A DNA stretch of 64,000 bases from Acidimicrobiia bacterium (GTDB lineage Bacteria > Actinomycetota > Acidimicrobiia > Spongiisociales > ZC4RG35), in contig DATGOV010000038.1 of the NCBI GenBank assembly GCA_035305585.1, positions 3,744 to 67,743 on the forward strand. Reading direction: 5' to 3'. The notes under the pieces were generated by a model that was given only the letters and a program-made list of their open reading frames with translations, ran no database searches and was not told where the DNA came from. A program made the position numbers and the translations under genes. Below, piece by piece: positions 26,524 to 36,358 of the stretch (position 1 is its first letter; each line of letters begins with the position of its first letter).

Positions 26524-27141
26524 TCAGCCGCCGAGTCGGTCGCGGAGCGTCTCGACGACCTGTTCCAGCAGCTCCAGGCACAGGCGGAGCCGGCTCGCCG
26601 GGCCGGACGACGAGAGCAGGGCCAAAGCATCGAGCGGGTCGACGGGAGCGAGAGCGGCGATCTGATAGCTGGCGGTGAGAGGATCGGAAGCGAGGTCGAC
26701 GCGGATGGCGGAGGTGTCGGCCCCCAGTTCGCTGGCCAGCGCCAACACCCTCCGAACCGACGCTTCGGCCTCGTCGAGGAGCGACTGAGGCACCTCTTCG
26801 GGGGCGTCCGGCCAGGGGACGACTTCGGCGAGCGGATATGGCTCCTCGGCCACCCATCGGGAGATGCGGAACCGCGAAACGGCGGCGGCGATGACCCGCC
26901 GGTGGTCGGCTTCGGGGAGCCGGCTGATCGAAGCGATCCGCAGCGTCGTGCCGACGTCGAAGCGTTCGTCCCCTCCCCCGACCTCGGAGCCCTTCTCGAT
27001 CAGCACGGTCCCGAAGGTGCCGTCACCGCCGGACACGTCGTCGACCAGGTGCTGGTAGCGGGTTTCGAACACGCGGAGCGGGAGCGCGGTGTAGGGGAAG
27101 ACGACCGACTGCAGCGGGAACATCGGCATCCGGGTCGTCAT
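26524..27141 (-). CDS. LON peptidase substrate-binding domain protein
   Basis: MPMFPLQSVVFPYTALPLRVFETRYQHLV, FGTVLIEKGSEVGGGD, RFRI..W..EEPYP. Confidence 0.9.
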   Translation of the reverse strand: MTTRMPMFPLQSVVFPYTALPLRVFETRYQHLVDDVSGGDGTFGTVLIEKGSEVGGGDERFDVGTTLRIASISRLPEADHRRVIAAAVSRFRISRWVAEEPYPLAEVVPWPDAPEEVPQSLLDEAEASVRRVLALASELGADTSAIRVDLASDPLTASYQIAALAPVDPLDALALLSSSGPASRLRLCLELLEQVVETLRDRLGG

Positions 27142-27584
27142 GTCGGCGTCTCCCGCATGCGGACCATGAACCGGAGGCGCTCTTTCACGTCACCGTCGAT
27201 GGAGACCACGAACGAGTAGGCGCCGGCTTCCCGAAAGACGATGTTGGTGAACGTCAAGGCCCGCACGACGGTGAGGTCCTGGCCTTCGGGCAAGTGCGGC
27301 GGGCGGCGAACAGGCACCGGCGCCTTCAGCGTTCCGGGGAGGACCGAGCGGCCGTCCTCGTCCTGCAGCTCGACTTCGAGGACCACCGACTCTCCGGGCC
27401 AGCCCCAGGGGACGCGGACTCGCAGTCCGATACCCATGCTCGGGTGACGGGCCGGGAGGGAGCGAACGGTGAGGACGTCCCATCCCCCACCGAGAACGAA
27501 GAGCTTCCCCTGGCTCGCCTGCACCGCATCCGCCAGGAGGGCGATGTCCACTGATGGCTCCAACGTCCCGCCACCGAAGTCCAC
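27138..27584 (-). CDS. Conserved hypothetical beta-sandwich protein (DUF6941-like)
   Basis: LLADAVQASQGKLFVLGGGWD and F..AGAYSFVVSIDG motifs; leaderless GTG 27584 (TAGGGT + 7 nt), alternative GTG 27551. Confidence 0.65.
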   Translation of the reverse strand: MDFGGGTLEPSVDIALLADAVQASQGKLFVLGGGWDVLTVRSLPARHPSMGIGLRVRVPWGWPGESVVLEVELQDEDGRSVLPGTLKAPVPVRRPPHLPEGQDLTVVRALTFTNIVFREAGAYSFVVSIDGDVKERLRFMVRMRETPT

Positions 27585-27685
27585 CTGCGCCACCCTACCG
27601 GTCCTCCCTCGGGGAGCGGAGTTCCGGGACTCGGCTTCGGCCCCGTATCGTTGGATCACGAAAACCTGTTCCAGGAGGTGTTGTT

Positions 27686-29008
27686 GTGTCCAAACCCGTT
27701 GACATCGCACCCGCCACTGGCAAGCTCGGGGTCCTGACGCCGGGCATGGGAGCCGTCGCCACGACGCTCTTCGCCGGAGTTCTGGCGGCGCGGAAGGGAT
27801 TGGCCGCACCCTATGGGTCACTCACCCAACTCGGCCACATCCGCCTGGGTCGCCGCGACGACGCCCGCAACCCGCTCATCAAGGACTTCGTCCCACTCGC
27901 CTCCCTCGACGATCTCGTGTTCGGGGGGTGGGACGTCTATTCGGACGACGCGTACGCCGCGGCGATGAAGGCCGGCGTGCTGGAACCCCGCCACATCGAG
28001 TCGATCGGCGACGAGCTGCGCCTGATCGAGCCGATGGCCGCCGTCTTCGACCATCAGTGGGTCCGCAATCTCAACGACGTCGACAACGTCAAGGAAGTCG
28101 AAGGCTCCAAGATGGATCAGGCCGAGGCCCTCATGGCCGACATCGACCGCTTCCGCTCCGAGCACGGCGTGGAGCGCGTGGTCATGGTCTGGTGCGGTTC
28201 GACCGAGTCCTATCGCGACCCTTCCGAAGTGCACATGGATCTGGCTTCGTTCGAGAAGGGATTGAAGGAGTCGCATCCGGACATCGCCCCGTCCCAGATC
28301 TACGCCTACGCCGCGCTCCAGTCCGACGTGCCCTTCGCCAACGGCGCGCCCAACCTCACCGTCGACATCCCGGCGATGGTCGAGCTGGCCGAAGAACGGG
28401 GCGTGCCGATCTCGGGCAAGGACTTCAAGACCGGCCAGACGCTGTTGAAGACGATCGTGGCTCCCGGCCTGAAGGCGCGGATGCTGGGTGTGCGGGGCTG
28501 GTTCTCGACGAACATCCTCGGCAACCGCGACGGCGAAGTCCTCGACGATCCGGAATCCTTCAAGTCGAAGGAGGTGTCGAAGCTCGGTGTTCTCGAGCAG
28601 ATCCTCCAGCCCGAGTTGTACCCGGAGCTCTACGGGGAGCTCTATCACAAGGTCCGCATCAACTACTACCCGCCGCGGGGCGACGAGAAGGAAGGCTGGG
28701 ACAACATCGACATCTTCGGGTGGCTCGGTTATCCCATGCAGATCAAGATCGACTTCCTGTGCCGGGACTCGATCCTGGCGGCTCCGCTCGCCCTCGACCT
28801 GGCGTTGTTCATGGACCTCGCCCACCGCGCCGACCGCAGGGGCATCCAGGAGTGGCTGTCCTTCTACTACAAGACCCCCCAGCACGCTCCGGAGATCTAT
28901 CCGGAAAACGACTTGTTCATCCAGCTCACGAAGCTGAAGAACAACCTGCGTCAGATGATGGGTGAGGACCTGATCACCCATCTCGGCACGGAGTACTACG
29001 AGAAGTAG
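27686..29008 (+). CDS. ino1: myo-inositol-1-phosphate synthase
   Basis: KLGVL.PGMGAVATT, FGGWD, NGAPN, GKDFKTGQT, WFSTNILGNRDG, DSILAAPLALDL; RBS CAGGAGG. Confidence 0.93.
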   Translation: MSKPVDIAPATGKLGVLTPGMGAVATTLFAGVLAARKGLAAPYGSLTQLGHIRLGRRDDARNPLIKDFVPLASLDDLVFGGWDVYSDDAYAAAMKAGVLEPRHIESIGDELRLIEPMAAVFDHQWVRNLNDVDNVKEVEGSKMDQAEALMADIDRFRSEHGVERVVMVWCGSTESYRDPSEVHMDLASFEKGLKESHPDIAPSQIYAYAALQSDVPFANGAPNLTVDIPAMVELAEERGVPISGKDFKTGQTLLKTIVAPGLKARMLGVRGWFSTNILGNRDGEVLDDPESFKSKEVSKLGVLEQILQPELYPELYGELYHKVRINYYPPRGDEKEGWDNIDIFGWLGYPMQIKIDFLCRDSILAAPLALDLALFMDLAHRADRRGIQEWLSFYYKTPQHAPEIYPENDLFIQLTKLKNNLRQMMGEDLITHLGTEYYEK

Positions 29009-30655: not shown

Positions 30656-32752
30656 TCACCGCACGAAAGAAGGCCGGGAAGCCGAGCCTCTCACCAGCCA
30701 CACCTCGAACTCGGCCCCTTCGTCGACCAGTTCCGGAGGCACCATCGCCTCCCACAACGCCGAGTTCCCCTCGGGCTCGTAGGTGCGCGTGGCTGCGACC
30801 ACCACGCCGTCGGCGGTGACCGCGACGATCTCCTGTCCGGTCGCCCCCTCCGGCACGGTCGCGGTCCCCGAGAGGTAGGCGGGGATCGGTTCTGCGCCCG
30901 GTTGGTGGACGGCGAGCTCCTCGGCTTGCGAGAGGATCACGTCCACACCGGCCTCGTCGACTCCGTTCGCCACCGACTGCCCCAACAGGCTCTCCCACTG
31001 GGGCGGCGCCAGGAGATAGGGATCACCCCCGGGGAACCAGCGGTCCTTCTCTTCGACCACCTCCATCAACGGAGCCAGGTCGAGGGGGATCTCGACGTCG
31101 CCGTCGGTGCCGCGCATCACCGAGGCGGTCCTTTCCGCCCGACGCGGCTCGTCGAGCAGGGACACACCGTCGGTCGCCCACGGGATCGAGACATCGAGCA
31201 CGTCCCCGATCGTGGGCACCACGTCGACCGTCTCGGCCCGCAGGTCGTCGACCGTGCCCGGATCGGGGGCGTCCGGATGGCCGGCCGGGTACTTGACGAA
31301 GAGAGGGATGAACGAGATCGTGCCGATGGTGTCGTCGGTGACCGTCCGCTGGTGCCCGGTGCCAGGCCGGATCGTGATGCCGTGGTCCGCCGCCACGACG
31401 ATCAGCGCTTCGTCGTAGACCCCCTGGCTCTCGAGCTGGTCGAGCACGCGGCCGAGCATCGTGTCCGCCCAGTGCGCCTGGATGAGATGTCGCTGCCATC
31501 CCTGGGCGACCAGATAGGCGTCGTCTCCCCAGCCCACGTTGTCCCGACCGGGAGGGCGCGGGGCGTTGTGGAGCCGGCCGTCGGCGGTCAGGTCCCACGG
31601 ATGGTGCGGATAGAGGAAGTGGGCGTAGCGAAACGACGCCGGGCCCTCCATCCGCCCGATCGACTCCAGGAATCGCGTCAGGTCCCGCCGCCGGTCGTTG
31701 GAGACCTGGGTGAGGAACCGATCGATGATGTCGAAGTCGCCCGTGTCCTGATCGACAAAGCCGCCCCATCCCTGATCGATCGGCGGGAGGGCGGCGGCGA
31801 CGTCGTCAGGTGCGATCAGGTGGGCGTAGACGACGGAGAGGTCGCCGAGCACGGATTCCCACCTCTCCCCCGGGGGCGCCACCGGGCGGCTGACGTTCCC
31901 GCATATGTACGGCGGGCACAGCTCGGTGACGTTCTCGATCGCCTCGACGTCGTAGTCGCCGGAGAGCAGAGAGAAGATCGTGAAAGGATGGTGGGCGGTC
32001 GTCGGGATGCTGCCTTCGGATACCACCCGTCCGGTGAGGAGCGCGGGGACCGCCTCCTCGGTCTGCTGATGGACACCGACAGCATTGCGATACCAGACAC
32101 CGTCGGCGGCGAGACGCCCGAAGGAGGGGAAGTGTTCGACGTCGAGCGACCCGTCGCCCCGGATCATGGAAGCGGCAGGAAACTCGTCGTAGACGATCAT
32201 CACGACCGGCGTCGGGTTGCCGACGTGGACCGCCTCCGGCACGTCGGCACGGGAAGCGAACAGCACGTCGGACGTCGGCGTAGCGAAAGCGAACCAGCCG
32301 AGCACCACGAACGGCGCCAACCCGAGGTAAGAGAACCCGGTCCGTGCCGAGGGGAAGCGGGCGTAGAGAGCGACCAGGCCCGCGCTCACCGCCACTGCGA
32401 CTACGTAGAACATCACCGGAGGCCACGAGCCGAACCCGGCGTTGACGAGGATCGTCGCCGCCGCCACGCTCCCCAGCGCTGCCAACAGCACCAGATGCAA
32501 GACGATCCCGGTGTCTCGGTGCACGGCGCGGACGGCGAGAACGACGGCCGCCAAGACGAACGGCACGAGCAACAGGCCGGAGGCGAGGAGCCAGATGTCG
32601 GGAACCGGGAAGCGACGAGCGACGAAGAACTCGGGGTTGCGACCGAGGAGGTCGAGGAGAGGCTGACCGAGGGCGAATGTGCCCAGACCGACGATCGACG
32701 CGACGACTGCGACCGGGCGGATCTCTCCCACCCCTTCGAAGGTCGGTCTCAT
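30656..32752 (-). CDS. Polytopic membrane sulfatase-like (alkaline phosphatase superfamily) hydrolase/transferase, NoeB-like
   Basis: About 5 N-terminal TM helices, then VMIVYDEFP, HQQTEEAVPALLTG, HFLYPHHPW, VAADHG, IPLFVKYP, DVVPTI. Confidence 0.8.
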   Translation of the reverse strand: MRPTFEGVGEIRPVAVVASIVGLGTFALGQPLLDLLGRNPEFFVARRFPVPDIWLLASGLLLVPFVLAAVVLAVRAVHRDTGIVLHLVLLAALGSVAAATILVNAGFGSWPPVMFYVVAVAVSAGLVALYARFPSARTGFSYLGLAPFVVLGWFAFATPTSDVLFASRADVPEAVHVGNPTPVVMIVYDEFPAASMIRGDGSLDVEHFPSFGRLAADGVWYRNAVGVHQQTEEAVPALLTGRVVSEGSIPTTAHHPFTIFSLLSGDYDVEAIENVTELCPPYICGNVSRPVAPPGERWESVLGDLSVVYAHLIAPDDVAAALPPIDQGWGGFVDQDTGDFDIIDRFLTQVSNDRRRDLTRFLESIGRMEGPASFRYAHFLYPHHPWDLTADGRLHNAPRPPGRDNVGWGDDAYLVAQGWQRHLIQAHWADTMLGRVLDQLESQGVYDEALIVVAADHGITIRPGTGHQRTVTDDTIGTISFIPLFVKYPAGHPDAPDPGTVDDLRAETVDVVPTIGDVLDVSIPWATDGVSLLDEPRRAERTASVMRGTDGDVEIPLDLAPLMEVVEEKDRWFPGGDPYLLAPPQWESLLGQSVANGVDEAGVDVILSQAEELAVHQPGAEPIPAYLSGTATVPEGATGQEIVAVTADGVVVAATRTYEPEGNSALWEAMVPPELVDEGAEFEVWLVRGSASRPSFVR

Positions 32753-34107
32753 CTACTCAGATGGTAAAGACGCCGCGTGCCACCGGGTAGGTCGGCCTCT
32801 CGCACCACTCGGAAGTGCTGCGACACCAGGCGGTCGAACGACTCACGGTCCCGGCCGGGGTGCAGTTCTTCCGGACGCTTGTTGGCGGTGAGACGGCCGA
32901 CCATCGGGTCTTCGGGTGCCACGAACTCGACAACGACGGGGACGTCGAAGGAGGCCAGCCACTCGACCACGCGGGCAGGCGGGATCGATGCCGAGTAGAT
33001 CAGGTGATGGATGAGGCCGTAGGCGATCACGAGGTCGGGGCGTGCCCGTTCGAAGAGCGCCGGCCGCTCGACTCCGGCCCAACCCTGCGACGGCGAGGGA
33101 TTCTGCAGATCGGTGAGGACCGGCGTGATCGGCGTGCCGGCGGAAAGGGACCGGTAGAGCCGGTCGAGCACGACCTCGTCGCCGTCGACGGCGATGGCGT
33201 CGGCGCCCCGGGAAACCGCGACCTGGCTGAAGTGACCGTCGTTGCAGCCGAGATCGAGCACCGTGGCAGGCGACACGGCCTCGAGGGCCTGGACGAGGAA
33301 TTCGGTCTTCAGGTCGCGATCGCGGGCTACGTGGTCGCATCCGTGGTACGTCGACCAGGTGCCGTCGTCGCTGTCCCATTCCAGGTCGTCGATGAGCGCA
33401 CGGAGCTTCTCGACGTTGGCACGGATCAGGTCGGCGGTGAAGCCGGCCTCGGCGAGCGAGCGGCGCACCTCTCGCCCTTTGAGGCGAGCCTCGGCGCGGG
33501 CTTGGAGGCCGATGTGGAGGATCGCCGCCGGGGTGGCCTTGCGGCGGGCCGGCAGCAACCGCCACATCTGGGCGCTGGTGGGTCCTTCCGGGTCGCCCCG
33601 CAGCCAGGGCTGGAACGGGACCCCACACCACGCCTCCATGAGCAGAGGGTGGAGGAACTGGCGGCAGAACTGGCGGTAGCCGATCCACGGCTCCCCCCTC
33701 CGGTATCGCTCGAAGGAGCCGACGTCGATGAACTGAGGACGGCCACCGACGAACTGGATGTTGTAGGGCGTGGCGTCCTTGAGGATCATCCCCTCGCCCA
33801 AGGCCTCGAGCATGAGGTCGAGCTGGAGGAGGGCGGCATCGCGGAGCATCGAGAAGGTCCACTCGAACGGATAGGTGATGAACCCGATCCGAGGATGCGC
33901 CAGCGCCCCGGCCGCACCCTCGGGGGCGTCGACCTCGGTGGTCGCGATGAGACGGCCGTGGGCGGTGGCCCGACCGAAGAAGTCGCTCGCTTGGAGAGCG
34001 CGCCAGTCGGCGAGGCCGCGTTCATCGAGGATTCGCGTGACCGTGGAGTCGCCGAGGACGACACGAGATGCCGGGTCTCGGAACGACCCGGGATCGGCCC
34101 AATTCAA
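32749..34107 (-). CDS. NoeA-like protein: kinase-like N-domain fused to class I SAM methyltransferase
   Basis: GSFRDP, YPFEWTFSML, LKDATPYNIQF, FIDVGSF; C-terminal VLDLGCNDG and LIHHL; TTG start; ATGA overlap with next gene. Confidence 0.8.
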   Translation of the reverse strand: MNWADPGSFRDPASRVVLGDSTVTRILDERGLADWRALQASDFFGRATAHGRLIATTEVDAPEGAAGALAHPRIGFITYPFEWTFSMLRDAALLQLDLMLEALGEGMILKDATPYNIQFVGGRPQFIDVGSFERYRRGEPWIGYRQFCRQFLHPLLMEAWCGVPFQPWLRGDPEGPTSAQMWRLLPARRKATPAAILHIGLQARAEARLKGREVRRSLAEAGFTADLIRANVEKLRALIDDLEWDSDDGTWSTYHGCDHVARDRDLKTEFLVQALEAVSPATVLDLGCNDGHFSQVAVSRGADAIAVDGDEVVLDRLYRSLSAGTPITPVLTDLQNPSPSQGWAGVERPALFERARPDLVIAYGLIHHLIYSASIPPARVVEWLASFDVPVVVEFVAPEDPMVGRLTANKRPEELHPGRDRESFDRLVSQHFRVVREADLPGGTRRLYHLSR

Positions 34108-34113
34108 AGGCGA

Positions 34114-34308
34114 TCAGCCTTCCTGGGTTTCCTCGGCCGGTACCGGCTCGGTCCCCTCGGCCGATTGCTCGGGTGCGGGCTCTTCACCCTTGCGGGACCG
34201 CCACCGGCTACGCATCGCCTTGGCGGCCACTCCGAGCCCGGCCACCCCGCCCAGCACTGCTTGCAGGATCAGACTTCCAGAACCGGGATCGAGATAGGCA
34301 AAGATCAT
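34114..34308 (-). CDS. Small single-pass membrane protein with YLDPGSGS motif
   Basis: MIFAYLDPGSGSLILQAVLGGVAGLGVAAKAMRSRWRSRK; RBS AAGGGA and TAAAGT -10 upstream; 6 bp before NoeA-like start. Confidence 0.75.
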   Translation of the reverse strand: MIFAYLDPGSGSLILQAVLGGVAGLGVAAKAMRSRWRSRKGEEPAPEQSAEGTEPVPAEETQEG

Positions 34309-34431: not shown

Positions 34432-35331
<900 letters not shown>

Positions 35332-35476
35332 TGGAGTCGGAAGTCGGAAGCCGGAAGCCGACGCGATCCGCTGCTTGTCCGGGTTCGGAGACTCGTGCGA
35401 CCCGCGAACGCGCCCATACGCCGACCCGCGACCTACCACCCACCACTCGCTTCCGGCGATACGCGAGACGCAGGAG

Positions 35477-36358
35477 ATGACACTCGACGCTTGGGTGGAA
35501 GCGGCGCGGCCGCGGACGTTGCCGGCGGCGGTGTCTCCGGTCCTGGTCGGGACCGGACTGGCGGTCGGAGATGGCGTGTTCCGTCTGGATGCGTTCGTCG
35601 CCGCATCGGTGGGGGCGCTCGCCATCCAGGTGGCGGCCAACTTCGCCAACGACGCCTCCGACGCCGCGCGGGGGGCCGACCCGGCCGACCGGGTCGGGCC
35701 ACCGCGAATGGTCGCCTCCGGGAGGGTGTCCTCGCGGGCGATGTGGGTCGCCACTTGGCTCACCGTGGCGGTCGCCGTCCTGGCGGGGATCTGGCTGATC
35801 GCCATCGCCGGCTGGGTGGTGGCGGCCATCGGCGTGGCATCCGTCGTGGCCATGCTCACCTACGTCGGCGGTCCCCTCCCCTACGGCTATCGGGCACTCG
35901 GAGAGATCGCGGTGTTCGTCTTCTTCGGACTGGTCGCCACGGTCGGCAGCCGTTACGTCCACGACATGACGGCTCCCCGCAGTGCCTGGGTGCTGGCCAT
36001 CCCGATGGGGATGCTGGCGGCGGCGATCCTCGTCGCCAACAACCGCCGCGACATCGACACGGACGCGCGGGTGGGCAAGCGGACCCTGGCCGTCGTGCTG
36101 GGTCGGCGCAACACCGAGCGGCTGTACGCCGTCCTCACCTACGGCGCCTACGCGGTCATCGCCGTGGCCGCCGCCGCCGGAATCACTCCCCTCCTGTCCG
36201 GGCTCGCCGCCTTCCTCGCCCCGTTCGCGATCGGCCCGAACCGCGCCATCTCGTCGGGAGCGGAAGGCGCCGCCCTCATCCCGGTCCTGGCCCAGACCGC
36301 CCGTCTCGAGCTGTGGACCGGTGCCGCCCTCGGCCTCGCCGCCGCGGTGGGTGGCTGA
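35477..36358 (+). CDS. menA: 1,4-dihydroxy-2-naphthoate polyprenyltransferase
   Basis: WVEAARPRTLPAA, NFANDASD, YGYRALGE, NNRRDIDTDARVGKRTLAV; RBS CAGGAG. Confidence 0.93.
   Translation: MTLDAWVEAARPRTLPAAVSPVLVGTGLAVGDGVFRLDAFVAASVGALAIQVAANFANDASDAARGADPADRVGPPRMVASGRVSSRAMWVATWLTVAVAVLAGIWLIAIAGWVVAAIGVASVVAMLTYVGGPLPYGYRALGEIAVFVFFGLVATVGSRYVHDMTAPRSAWVLAIPMGMLAAAILVANNRRDIDTDARVGKRTLAVVLGRRNTERLYAVLTYGAYAVIAVAAAAGITPLLSGLAAFLAPFAIGPNRAISSGAEGAALIPVLAQTARLELWTGAALGLAAAVGG

Follow-up and report, generated by a model that had tools for sequence, protein, structure and literature searches.

The O-antigen of Escherichia coli O9a is capped with methyl-phosphate by WbdD (PDB 4AZS, 4AZW, 4UW0), a bifunctional protein in which an S-adenosylmethionine (SAM)-dependent methyltransferase is followed by a kinase and a C-terminal coiled-coil ruler, and whose methylation of mannose 3-phosphate requires each of H132, H133, R203 and Y16 (Hagelueken et al. 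2012, PMC3482155). Here we describe a gene for a NoeA-like protein, in which a predicted kinase-like domain precedes a class I methyltransferase, that lies in a window of 64,000 nucleotides (the whole stretch of DNA that was analysed) from contig DATGOV010000038.1 of an Acidimicrobiia metagenome-assembled genome. A first-pass annotation of this window had likened the protein to WbdD, and its account of that enzyme, with methyltransferase before kinase and a methyl-phosphate cap as the product, is correct according to the same paper.

Closer still is the Lani_1194 family of Legionella anisa, for which Krysinska et al. 2022 (Sci Rep 12:21782, PMC9758233) named NoeA of Sinorhizobium meliloti as a homologue. 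The N-terminus of Lani_1194 was described there as an atypical kinase with R38 in place of K72 of protein kinase A (PKA), conserved equivalents of PKA D166, N171 and D184 and no identifiable ion-pair Glu, and its top match in FFAS was OspG. A C-terminal class I methyltransferase is kept in 94% of approximately 2000 Lani_1194 homologues, the small hypothetical protein Lani_1193 is found in 65% of the neighbourhoods, and Lani_1195/NoeB, an alkaline-phosphatase-fold protein resembling EptA, YejM and MCR-1, is found in 38% (PMC9758233). That study explicitly likened only Lcin_0519, which represents a second kinase-methyltransferase family, to WbdD.

Family membership of the NoeA-like protein

The NoeA-like open reading frame (ORF; coordinates of all features are given in Table 1) has a codon-position GC content of 0.72/0.48/0.85, which is the pattern of the other real genes of the window (67% GC), and the antisense ORFs that overlap it have a GC profile unlike that of real genes. 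The name given in the first-pass annotation proved apt, as the product is a full-length homologue of the annotated S. meliloti NoeA (34% identity, residues 7-452 against 21-474, BLASTP E 2e-78), and in a tblastn search with the window protein 57 pSym plasmids of Sinorhizobium matched at the noeA locus. Full-length homologues number more than 3152. All four features of the NoeA/Lani_1194 family are present in the window, namely homology to NoeA over the full length with the same architecture, a kinase-like domain with the same Arg/Asp/Asn/Asp set, a class I methyltransferase and the same neighbours. The protein is a member of this family, and our best explanation takes it to be cytoplasmic and bifunctional. 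The host itself is an Acidimicrobiia bacterium whose metagenome-assembled genome has neither nod genes nor nodL.

Given that the hidden kinase domain of NoeA homologues was published in 2022 (PMC9758233), its presence was already known and the present case is a rediscovery in another family member. Two aspects go slightly beyond that study, namely a His-His/Arg phosphate-site signature common to this family and WbdD, and the description of a small protein with a YLDPGSGS motif as the most tightly linked partner.

At the level of annotation, the N-terminal half leaves no trace. Pfam recognised only a class I methyltransferase in the protein (Methyltransf_23, residues 265-370, E 2.7e-6), NCBIfam gave nothing beyond weak, sub-threshold methyltransferase matches, and close homologues carry the public names 'methyltransferase', 'PrmA', 'SAM-dependent methyltransferase' and, once, 'nodulation protein NoeA'. 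The remark in the first-pass annotation that such proteins are usually labelled only as methyltransferases was thus accurate. In addition, no kinase family (Pkinase, APH, Kdo, RIO1 and others) was matched by Pfam at E<=10 in the N-terminal domains of 30 diverse members, and a 30-sequence hidden Markov model (HMM) of the domain found nothing at E<=10 among the PDB sequences. The domain is truly hidden at the sequence-profile level.

The kinase-like N-terminal domain

The first-pass annotation had proposed a concealed protein-kinase-like (PKL) domain from two motifs, and this proposal is supported by the predicted fold and by an invariant Asp, Asn and Asp. Residues 109-131 of the protein read LKDATPYNIQFVGGRPQFIDVGS (encoded at 33715-33783, minus strand) and contain both motifs. 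In the catalytic-loop equivalent, D111 and N116 have the D-x4-N spacing that had been noted, and both are invariant (59/59) among 59 homologue representatives sharing 32-61% identity, the sample on which the conservation counts for this family rest. D128 of the proposed DFG-like IDVG is exactly 12 residues after N116, as had been stated, and is equally invariant, but the Gly of the expected D-x-G is not conserved (G130, 35/59). Since S131 is found in 59/59, the conserved motif is D-x4-N ... D-x-x-S and not D-x-G. D111, N116, D128 and S131 are among only ten invariant columns in the whole protein; R25 is conserved in 58/58 where present, E82 in 57/58 and K110 in 46/59. Although the D-x4-N...D pattern alone is unremarkable, the invariance of its three residues at this level of divergence raises it above chance. 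In S. meliloti NoeA, the two motif positions read LSDATAYN and FIDHLS.

Structure prediction followed by a Foldseek comparison, as the first-pass annotation had suggested, returned a PKL fold. The AlphaFold2 model of residues 1-250 (mean predicted local distance difference test, pLDDT, 82) has N-lobe strands at 16-18, 22-27, 57-59 and 67-72, with two helices between the second and third of these, and a helical C-lobe that begins at residue 85 with a long helix (85-104) and continues with a β-strand (107-109), the D111...N116 loop, two further β-strands (117-120 and 123-126) and D128, which is the order of the canonical kinase core. The full-length model, built from a 40-sequence alignment, reached a pLDDT of 83 and a predicted template modelling score (pTM) of 0.87. 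When the N-terminal domain was compared with the PDB by Foldseek, 101 matches were obtained at E<=1e-3, of which the best 50 were all protein kinases, led by PknG (1e-5) and followed by TNIK, CK2 and PknB, with WbdD (4AX8) at rank 36 (5.4e-4); the Foldseek probabilities of the kinase matches were close to 1.0. A bilobal protein-kinase-like fold of the N-terminal domain is thus supported by the model.

Profile-profile comparisons point to the same residues. PknB-like kinases of related genomes served as yardstick, because the window's own assembly has no Pkinase match, and gave a single weak alignment (E 0.095) that sets LKDATPYN on HRDiKPgN and FIDVGS on VtDFGi. With a WbdD profile built from 67 sequences, the best alignment again covered this motif segment (P 0.017, score 25.1), pairing D111, N116 and D128 with D351, N356 and D369 (IDFGS of WbdD) and W141 with W382; the score exceeded those of 40/40 column shuffles (at most 21.8) and that of the reversed profile (14.1). 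The two alignments are independent and choose the same register, and a greedy hhalign run (P 0.0077) placed R25 on the conserved β3 Lys of the WbdD kinase N-lobe. In short, for a computational result there is good support both for the assignment of the domain as kinase-like and for the mapping of its residues. As a separate observation, Pfam Pkinase is matched nowhere in the window's assembly, which comprises 55 contigs (1.8 Mb) and is about 70% complete, but at least once in each of 20 relatives searched; this absence is probably an assembly gap rather than a real loss.

Compared with Hanks-type kinases such as PknB, PknG and CK2 and with minimal effector kinases such as OspG, the domain shares an identical topology of β6, D-x4-N, β7-β8 and Asp. 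However, it lacks the HRD motif, the Gly of DFG, the β3 Lys and the APE motif of the activation loop; its N-lobe has four strands, and at its C-terminal end a helical extension packs on the methyltransferase. By its predicted fold and catalytic triad the domain is placed in the PKL superfamily, although it lacks the Lys-Glu pair and is matched by no curated kinase HMM. It is also widespread, as phmmer retrieved 3619 clusters (50% identity) from many phyla at E<=1e-3 in a search space of 1.84 billion representative proteins. It occurs once per genome in 20/41 related genomes, which indicates that it is accessory but common.

The methyltransferase domain and a possible methyl-phosphate product

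The SAM motif I that the first-pass annotation had read in the C-terminal half, VLDLGCNDG, is indeed present and lies within the only Pfam match of the protein, with D285, G287, N289 and G291 conserved in 57-58/58. Several comparisons show that this domain is homologous to the methyltransferase of WbdD. In a phmmer search of PDB sequences with the single protein, WbdD chains (E 5e-5) were the best matches after one structural-genomics methyltransferase, and with a family profile they became the top three. In addition, hhalign matched the domain to the 67-sequence WbdD profile with a probability of 97.5-97.7% (E 8e-12 to 1.3e-12), and among the Foldseek matches, which are methyltransferases, WbdD chains at ranks 5, 8 and 17 have the highest sequence identities in the list. 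The alignments pair H367 (53/59) and H368 (54/59) with H132 and H133 of WbdD, and R445 (57/59) with R203, which is conserved in 66/67 members of the WbdD family. These counterparts form the basis for our methyl-phosphate proposal, as, according to PMC3482155, the O8 enzyme and other sugar methyltransferases lack equivalents of R203, H132 and H133.

The likeness to WbdD therefore comprises the combination of a kinase with a SAM methyltransferase, the homologous methyltransferase with its phosphate-site residues, and the kinase catalytic loop and DxGS segment in register up to the downstream Trp. The differences are also considerable. The domain order is reversed, so that the NoeA-like protein ends with the methyltransferase β-hairpin and has no coiled-coil ruler; the β3 Lys of WbdD is replaced by Arg; and the similarity of the kinase domains is only marginally significant (P ~0.01-0.02). 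The wbdD gene is accompanied by ABC-transporter O-polysaccharide genes (wzm/wzt and mannosyltransferases), none of which was seen within about 10 kb of the NoeA-like gene, which is instead coupled to a membrane enzyme of alkaline-phosphatase fold and a small peptide. By this comparison, the NoeA-like protein would probably at most work like WbdD and is not a member of the WbdD family.

Here we infer ATP use, phosphotransfer, a phosphate as methyl acceptor and the nature of the acceptor as follows. The kinase-like domain would probably bind Mg-ATP through R25, N116 and D128, and D111 would serve as the catalytic base in phosphorylating a hydroxyl group of an acceptor, for which a glycan or glycolipid, either of the envelope or secreted, is the most likely candidate. 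The methyltransferase domain would then methylate the newly added phosphate and thereby create a methyl-phosphate decoration, as WbdD does, and the enzyme would act within a conserved, translationally coupled three-gene cassette together with the YLDPGSGS peptide and an LtaS/EptA-like enzyme of the NoeB type. The retained counterparts of the WbdD His-His/Arg residues make methylation of the new phosphate the most likely second step and, together with the conservation of the fusion and the confidently modelled packing of the two domains in the full-length protein, favour a sequence of phosphorylation and methylation. We consider the mechanism as a whole somewhat more probable than not.

A number of points weigh against this proposal and should be set out together. 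The β3 position holds an invariant Arg, not a Lys, and no αC Glu partner for R25 has been identified, here or in PMC9758233, which makes the domain atypical, so that canonical kinase activity is not guaranteed. The template modelling scores (TM-scores) of the domain to kinases are low (0.33-0.47), indicating a minimal, divergent kinase fold, and the sequence-level links to kinases are weak alone (P 0.017-0.095). In the methyltransferase, the pairing of R445 with R203 falls in the lower-confidence end of the alignment and is of modest confidence; Y254 (58/58) is about as far upstream of motif I as Y16 of WbdD, but hhalign leaves the two unaligned; and NodS or RebM, which methylate no phosphate, likewise have His-His in the place of H132/H133 (PMC3482155). 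Residues 333-348 (33064-33111, minus strand) form a strongly conserved insertion relative to WbdD, with the consensus D/N-L-x-D/N-P-S-P-x-x-G-W-x-x-x-E-R; this loop is likely a mobile substrate-binding lid, given its pLDDT below 50 (residues 336-347). Mutants in noeA are said to show no altered Nod factor, and our literature search found no paper with biochemical data on any NoeA/Lani_1194 family member. The genetics of noeA demonstrate only a role in host range (Ardourel et al. 1995, as cited in PMC9758233).

Some of these points would also fit a model in which both domains are active on different atoms, with phosphorylation at one position and O- or N-methylation at another of the same acceptor, giving two independent decorations and no methyl-phosphate. 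The His-His of NodS or RebM would be in keeping with this, as would the Foldseek neighbours of the C-terminal domain, which are mostly small-molecule C-, O- and N-methyltransferases, and the NPSPxxGW...ER insertion, which suggests a substrate pocket different from that of WbdD. We nevertheless think this arrangement unlikely, if worth bearing in mind, since R445 pairs with an Arg of WbdD reported to have no equivalent in sugar methyltransferases, the fusion is kept in 94% of kinase-domain homologues (PMC9758233), and the interdomain packing (pTM 0.87) suggests coupled chemistry.

The kinase fold also supports other chemistry. SelO and SidJ are enzymes of this fold that catalyse reactions other than phosphorylation, and the strict conservation of R25 as Arg, the lack of an ion-pair Glu and the low TM-scores to canonical kinases could be taken to mean that the NoeA-like domain likewise performs another nucleotide-dependent reaction, such as AMPylation, transfer of a nucleotidyl or phospho-form group, or ATPase-driven gating. 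The geometry and spacing of D-x4-N...D, however, are those of phosphotransferases and match WbdD, and the partner methyltransferase carries the WbdD phosphate-site residues, so that we regard such a reaction as improbable. More improbable again is a dead pseudokinase that merely provides the methyltransferase with a module for binding substrate or for docking to the membrane or a partner. The replacement of Lys by Arg, the missing αC Glu and the loss of the DFG Gly would fit such a role, but pseudokinases typically lose the catalytic Asp, the Asn or the second Asp, and here all three are among the ten invariant columns. Finally, a chance likeness of motifs in an unrelated helical domain, for which one could cite the empty HMMER searches of Pfam and PDB sequences with the N-terminal domain, is effectively refuted.

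The three-gene cassette and its neighbourhood

In the window, the cassette is intact and consists of the small YLDPGSGS peptide, the NoeA-like protein and a NoeB-like protein. The small ORF ends 6 nt before the start of the NoeA-like gene, and the ATG of the NoeB-like gene overlaps the NoeA-like stop codon (ATGA). Conservation of the small ORF and of the neighbour of alkaline-phosphatase (AP) fold extends from Rhizobia to the Planctomycetota and the Acidimicrobiia.

Table 1. Positions in the window of the NoeA-like gene, its domains and key residues, and the neighbouring genes. Abbreviations: aa, amino acids; TM, transmembrane; AF2, AlphaFold2.
Feature	Position	Strand	Basis or remark
NoeA-like coding sequence, 452 aa plus stop	32749..34107	-	TTG start; predicted kinase-like domain fused to class I SAM methyltransferase
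Predicted atypical protein-kinase-like domain, residues ~5-245	33373..34095	-	AF2 model of the N-terminal domain and Foldseek
R25, Arg at the position of the β3 ATP-binding Lys	34033..34035	-	Conservation and greedy hhalign to WbdD
Catalytic-loop equivalent LKDATPYN, with D111 (putative catalytic base) and N116 (putative metal ligand)	33760..33783	-	Translation, conservation, profile alignments
DFG equivalent IDVGS, with D128 (putative metal ligand)	33715..33729	-	Translation, conservation, profile alignments
Class I SAM-dependent methyltransferase domain, WbdD-like, residues ~250-452	32752..33360	-	Pfam Methyltransf_23/25/12, phmmer, hhalign, Foldseek
SAM motif I VLDLGCNDG, residues 283-291	33235..33261	-	Translation; inside the Methyltransf_23 match
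H367-H368, counterparts of WbdD H132-H133	33004..33009	-	phmmer, family-profile and hhalign alignments
R445, last β-strand, counterpart of WbdD R203	32773..32775	-	hhalign with mact 0.02, gtR-LY against isRPmY
Small membrane protein, 64 aa, first cassette gene	34114..34308	-	MIFA-YLDPGSGS motif, one TM helix, basic patch, acidic tail
NoeB-like polytopic membrane enzyme, alkaline-phosphatase/sulfatase superfamily, 698 aa	30656..32752	-	Pfam Sulfatase E 2e-14
menE-like ligase, 406 aa	29425-30645	-	Below the NCBIfam cut-off; apparently without the usual N-terminal ~70 residues
menB/menA	34432-35331, 35375-36358	+	Divergent from the cassette

The sequence of the small protein comprises MIFAYLDPGSGS, a transmembrane (TM) helix, a patch of basic residues (KAMRSRWRSRK) and a tail of acidic ones, and neither Pfam nor NCBIfam has a family for it. 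It is the equivalent of Lani_1193, the neighbour described in PMC9758233, and shares 43% identity over 44 residues (E 9e-9) with an unnamed 71-residue ORF just upstream of S. meliloti noeA. An ORF with the motif (A/G)Y(L/I)DPG(S/T)GS and a TM helix is located upstream of NoeA homologues at every same-genus locus and at most distant Acidimicrobiia loci, as well as in Singulisphaera (Planctomycetota) and Rhizobium. Rhizobial members, unlike the window protein, have a signal-peptide-like extension ending in AHA right before the Tyr, also seen at one Acidimicrobiia locus, which suggests that the motif lies at the outer face of the membrane. An echo of the DPGS sequence in the N-terminus of NoeA was also considered and has little support: only (G/A)-S-F-R-D is conserved there in diverse sequences, and with D5 in 30/59 and P6 in 34/59 the core shared with the small peptide shrinks to Gly-Ser, which is probably coincidental.

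The NoeB-like protein is larger than S. meliloti NoeB (698 against 553 residues) and only distantly similar to it (E 2e-4 over the DHG core). Its layout is that of LtaS, EptA, MCR-1 and OpgB, with a polytopic membrane region at the N-terminus and an extracytoplasmic AP-superfamily domain after it, and Lani_1195 was reported to match EptA, YejM and MCR-1 (PMC9758233). Its matches in the PDB comprise hydrolases of the AP superfamily (phosphonate monoester hydrolase and choline sulfatase) and lipoteichoic acid (LTA) primase; in contrast to the LtaS/EptA group, its best matches by sequence are the hydrolases, which cover only the C-terminal half of the domain. Orthologues adjoin NoeA at 5/8 distant Acidimicrobiia loci, sometimes in convergent orientation, and are annotated as 'LTA synthase family' in Singulisphaera and as 'sulfatase-like hydrolase/transferase' in Rhizobium. 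At the position of the Cys of 2VQR, the protein shows no obvious sulfatase motif of the form C/S-x-P-x-R; the sequence of this region, VGVHQQTEEAVPALLTG, is compatible with a Thr-nucleophile phospho-form transferase of the LtaS/EptA type. Some relatives have a second, convergent paralogue of 824-851 residues.

As a difference from S. meliloti, the window cassette has menE downstream of it in the same direction and the divergent menB/menA on its other side. That the cassette is functionally tied to menaquinone synthesis was considered and discarded: this linkage holds in the window's genus, but the men genes lie beside the cassette in 0/8 more distant loci, and we therefore treat it as incidental. 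Up to about 10 kb away, the neighbourhood also includes ino1, a gene for a Lon-N domain protein, gltB and PPDK, but neither a glycosyltransferase nor an ABC exporter was seen in it. A gene for a DUF6941 protein (27138-27821, minus strand) is translationally coupled, by a 4-nt overlap, to one for a stand-alone LON_substr_bdg domain protein (26524-27141, minus strand), and this pair is found downstream of a convergent gene for myo-inositol-1-phosphate synthase (27554-29008, plus strand). As listed, the ORF of the synthase has about 270 nt in common with the DUF6941 gene, so its true start is probably later.

The copy in the window is itself ordinary, being one more member of a published family. 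A curated model of the kinase-like domain would nevertheless correct thousands of methyltransferase-only annotations (3619 clusters), and the His-His/Arg signature leads to a testable prediction for a question of NoeA/NoeB chemistry that dates from the host-range genetics of 1995, namely that a glycan or glycolipid receives a methyl-phosphate (+94 Da) in an ATP-dependent manner. Here we speculate, while considering it rather unlikely, that the cassette is a widespread machine for envelope decoration, in which NoeA, as a domain-swapped relative of WbdD, would work at the cytoplasmic face of the membrane and there make methyl-phosphate or a different methylated phospho-form, and NoeB and the YLDPGSGS peptide would transfer or present it outside; the exposed Ser/Thr motif of the peptide might itself be the acceptor or carrier. 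If true, bacteria of thousands of lineages would carry a phospho-form modification of a new class, and the host-range phenotype of noeA and noeB, now 30 years old, would be explained.

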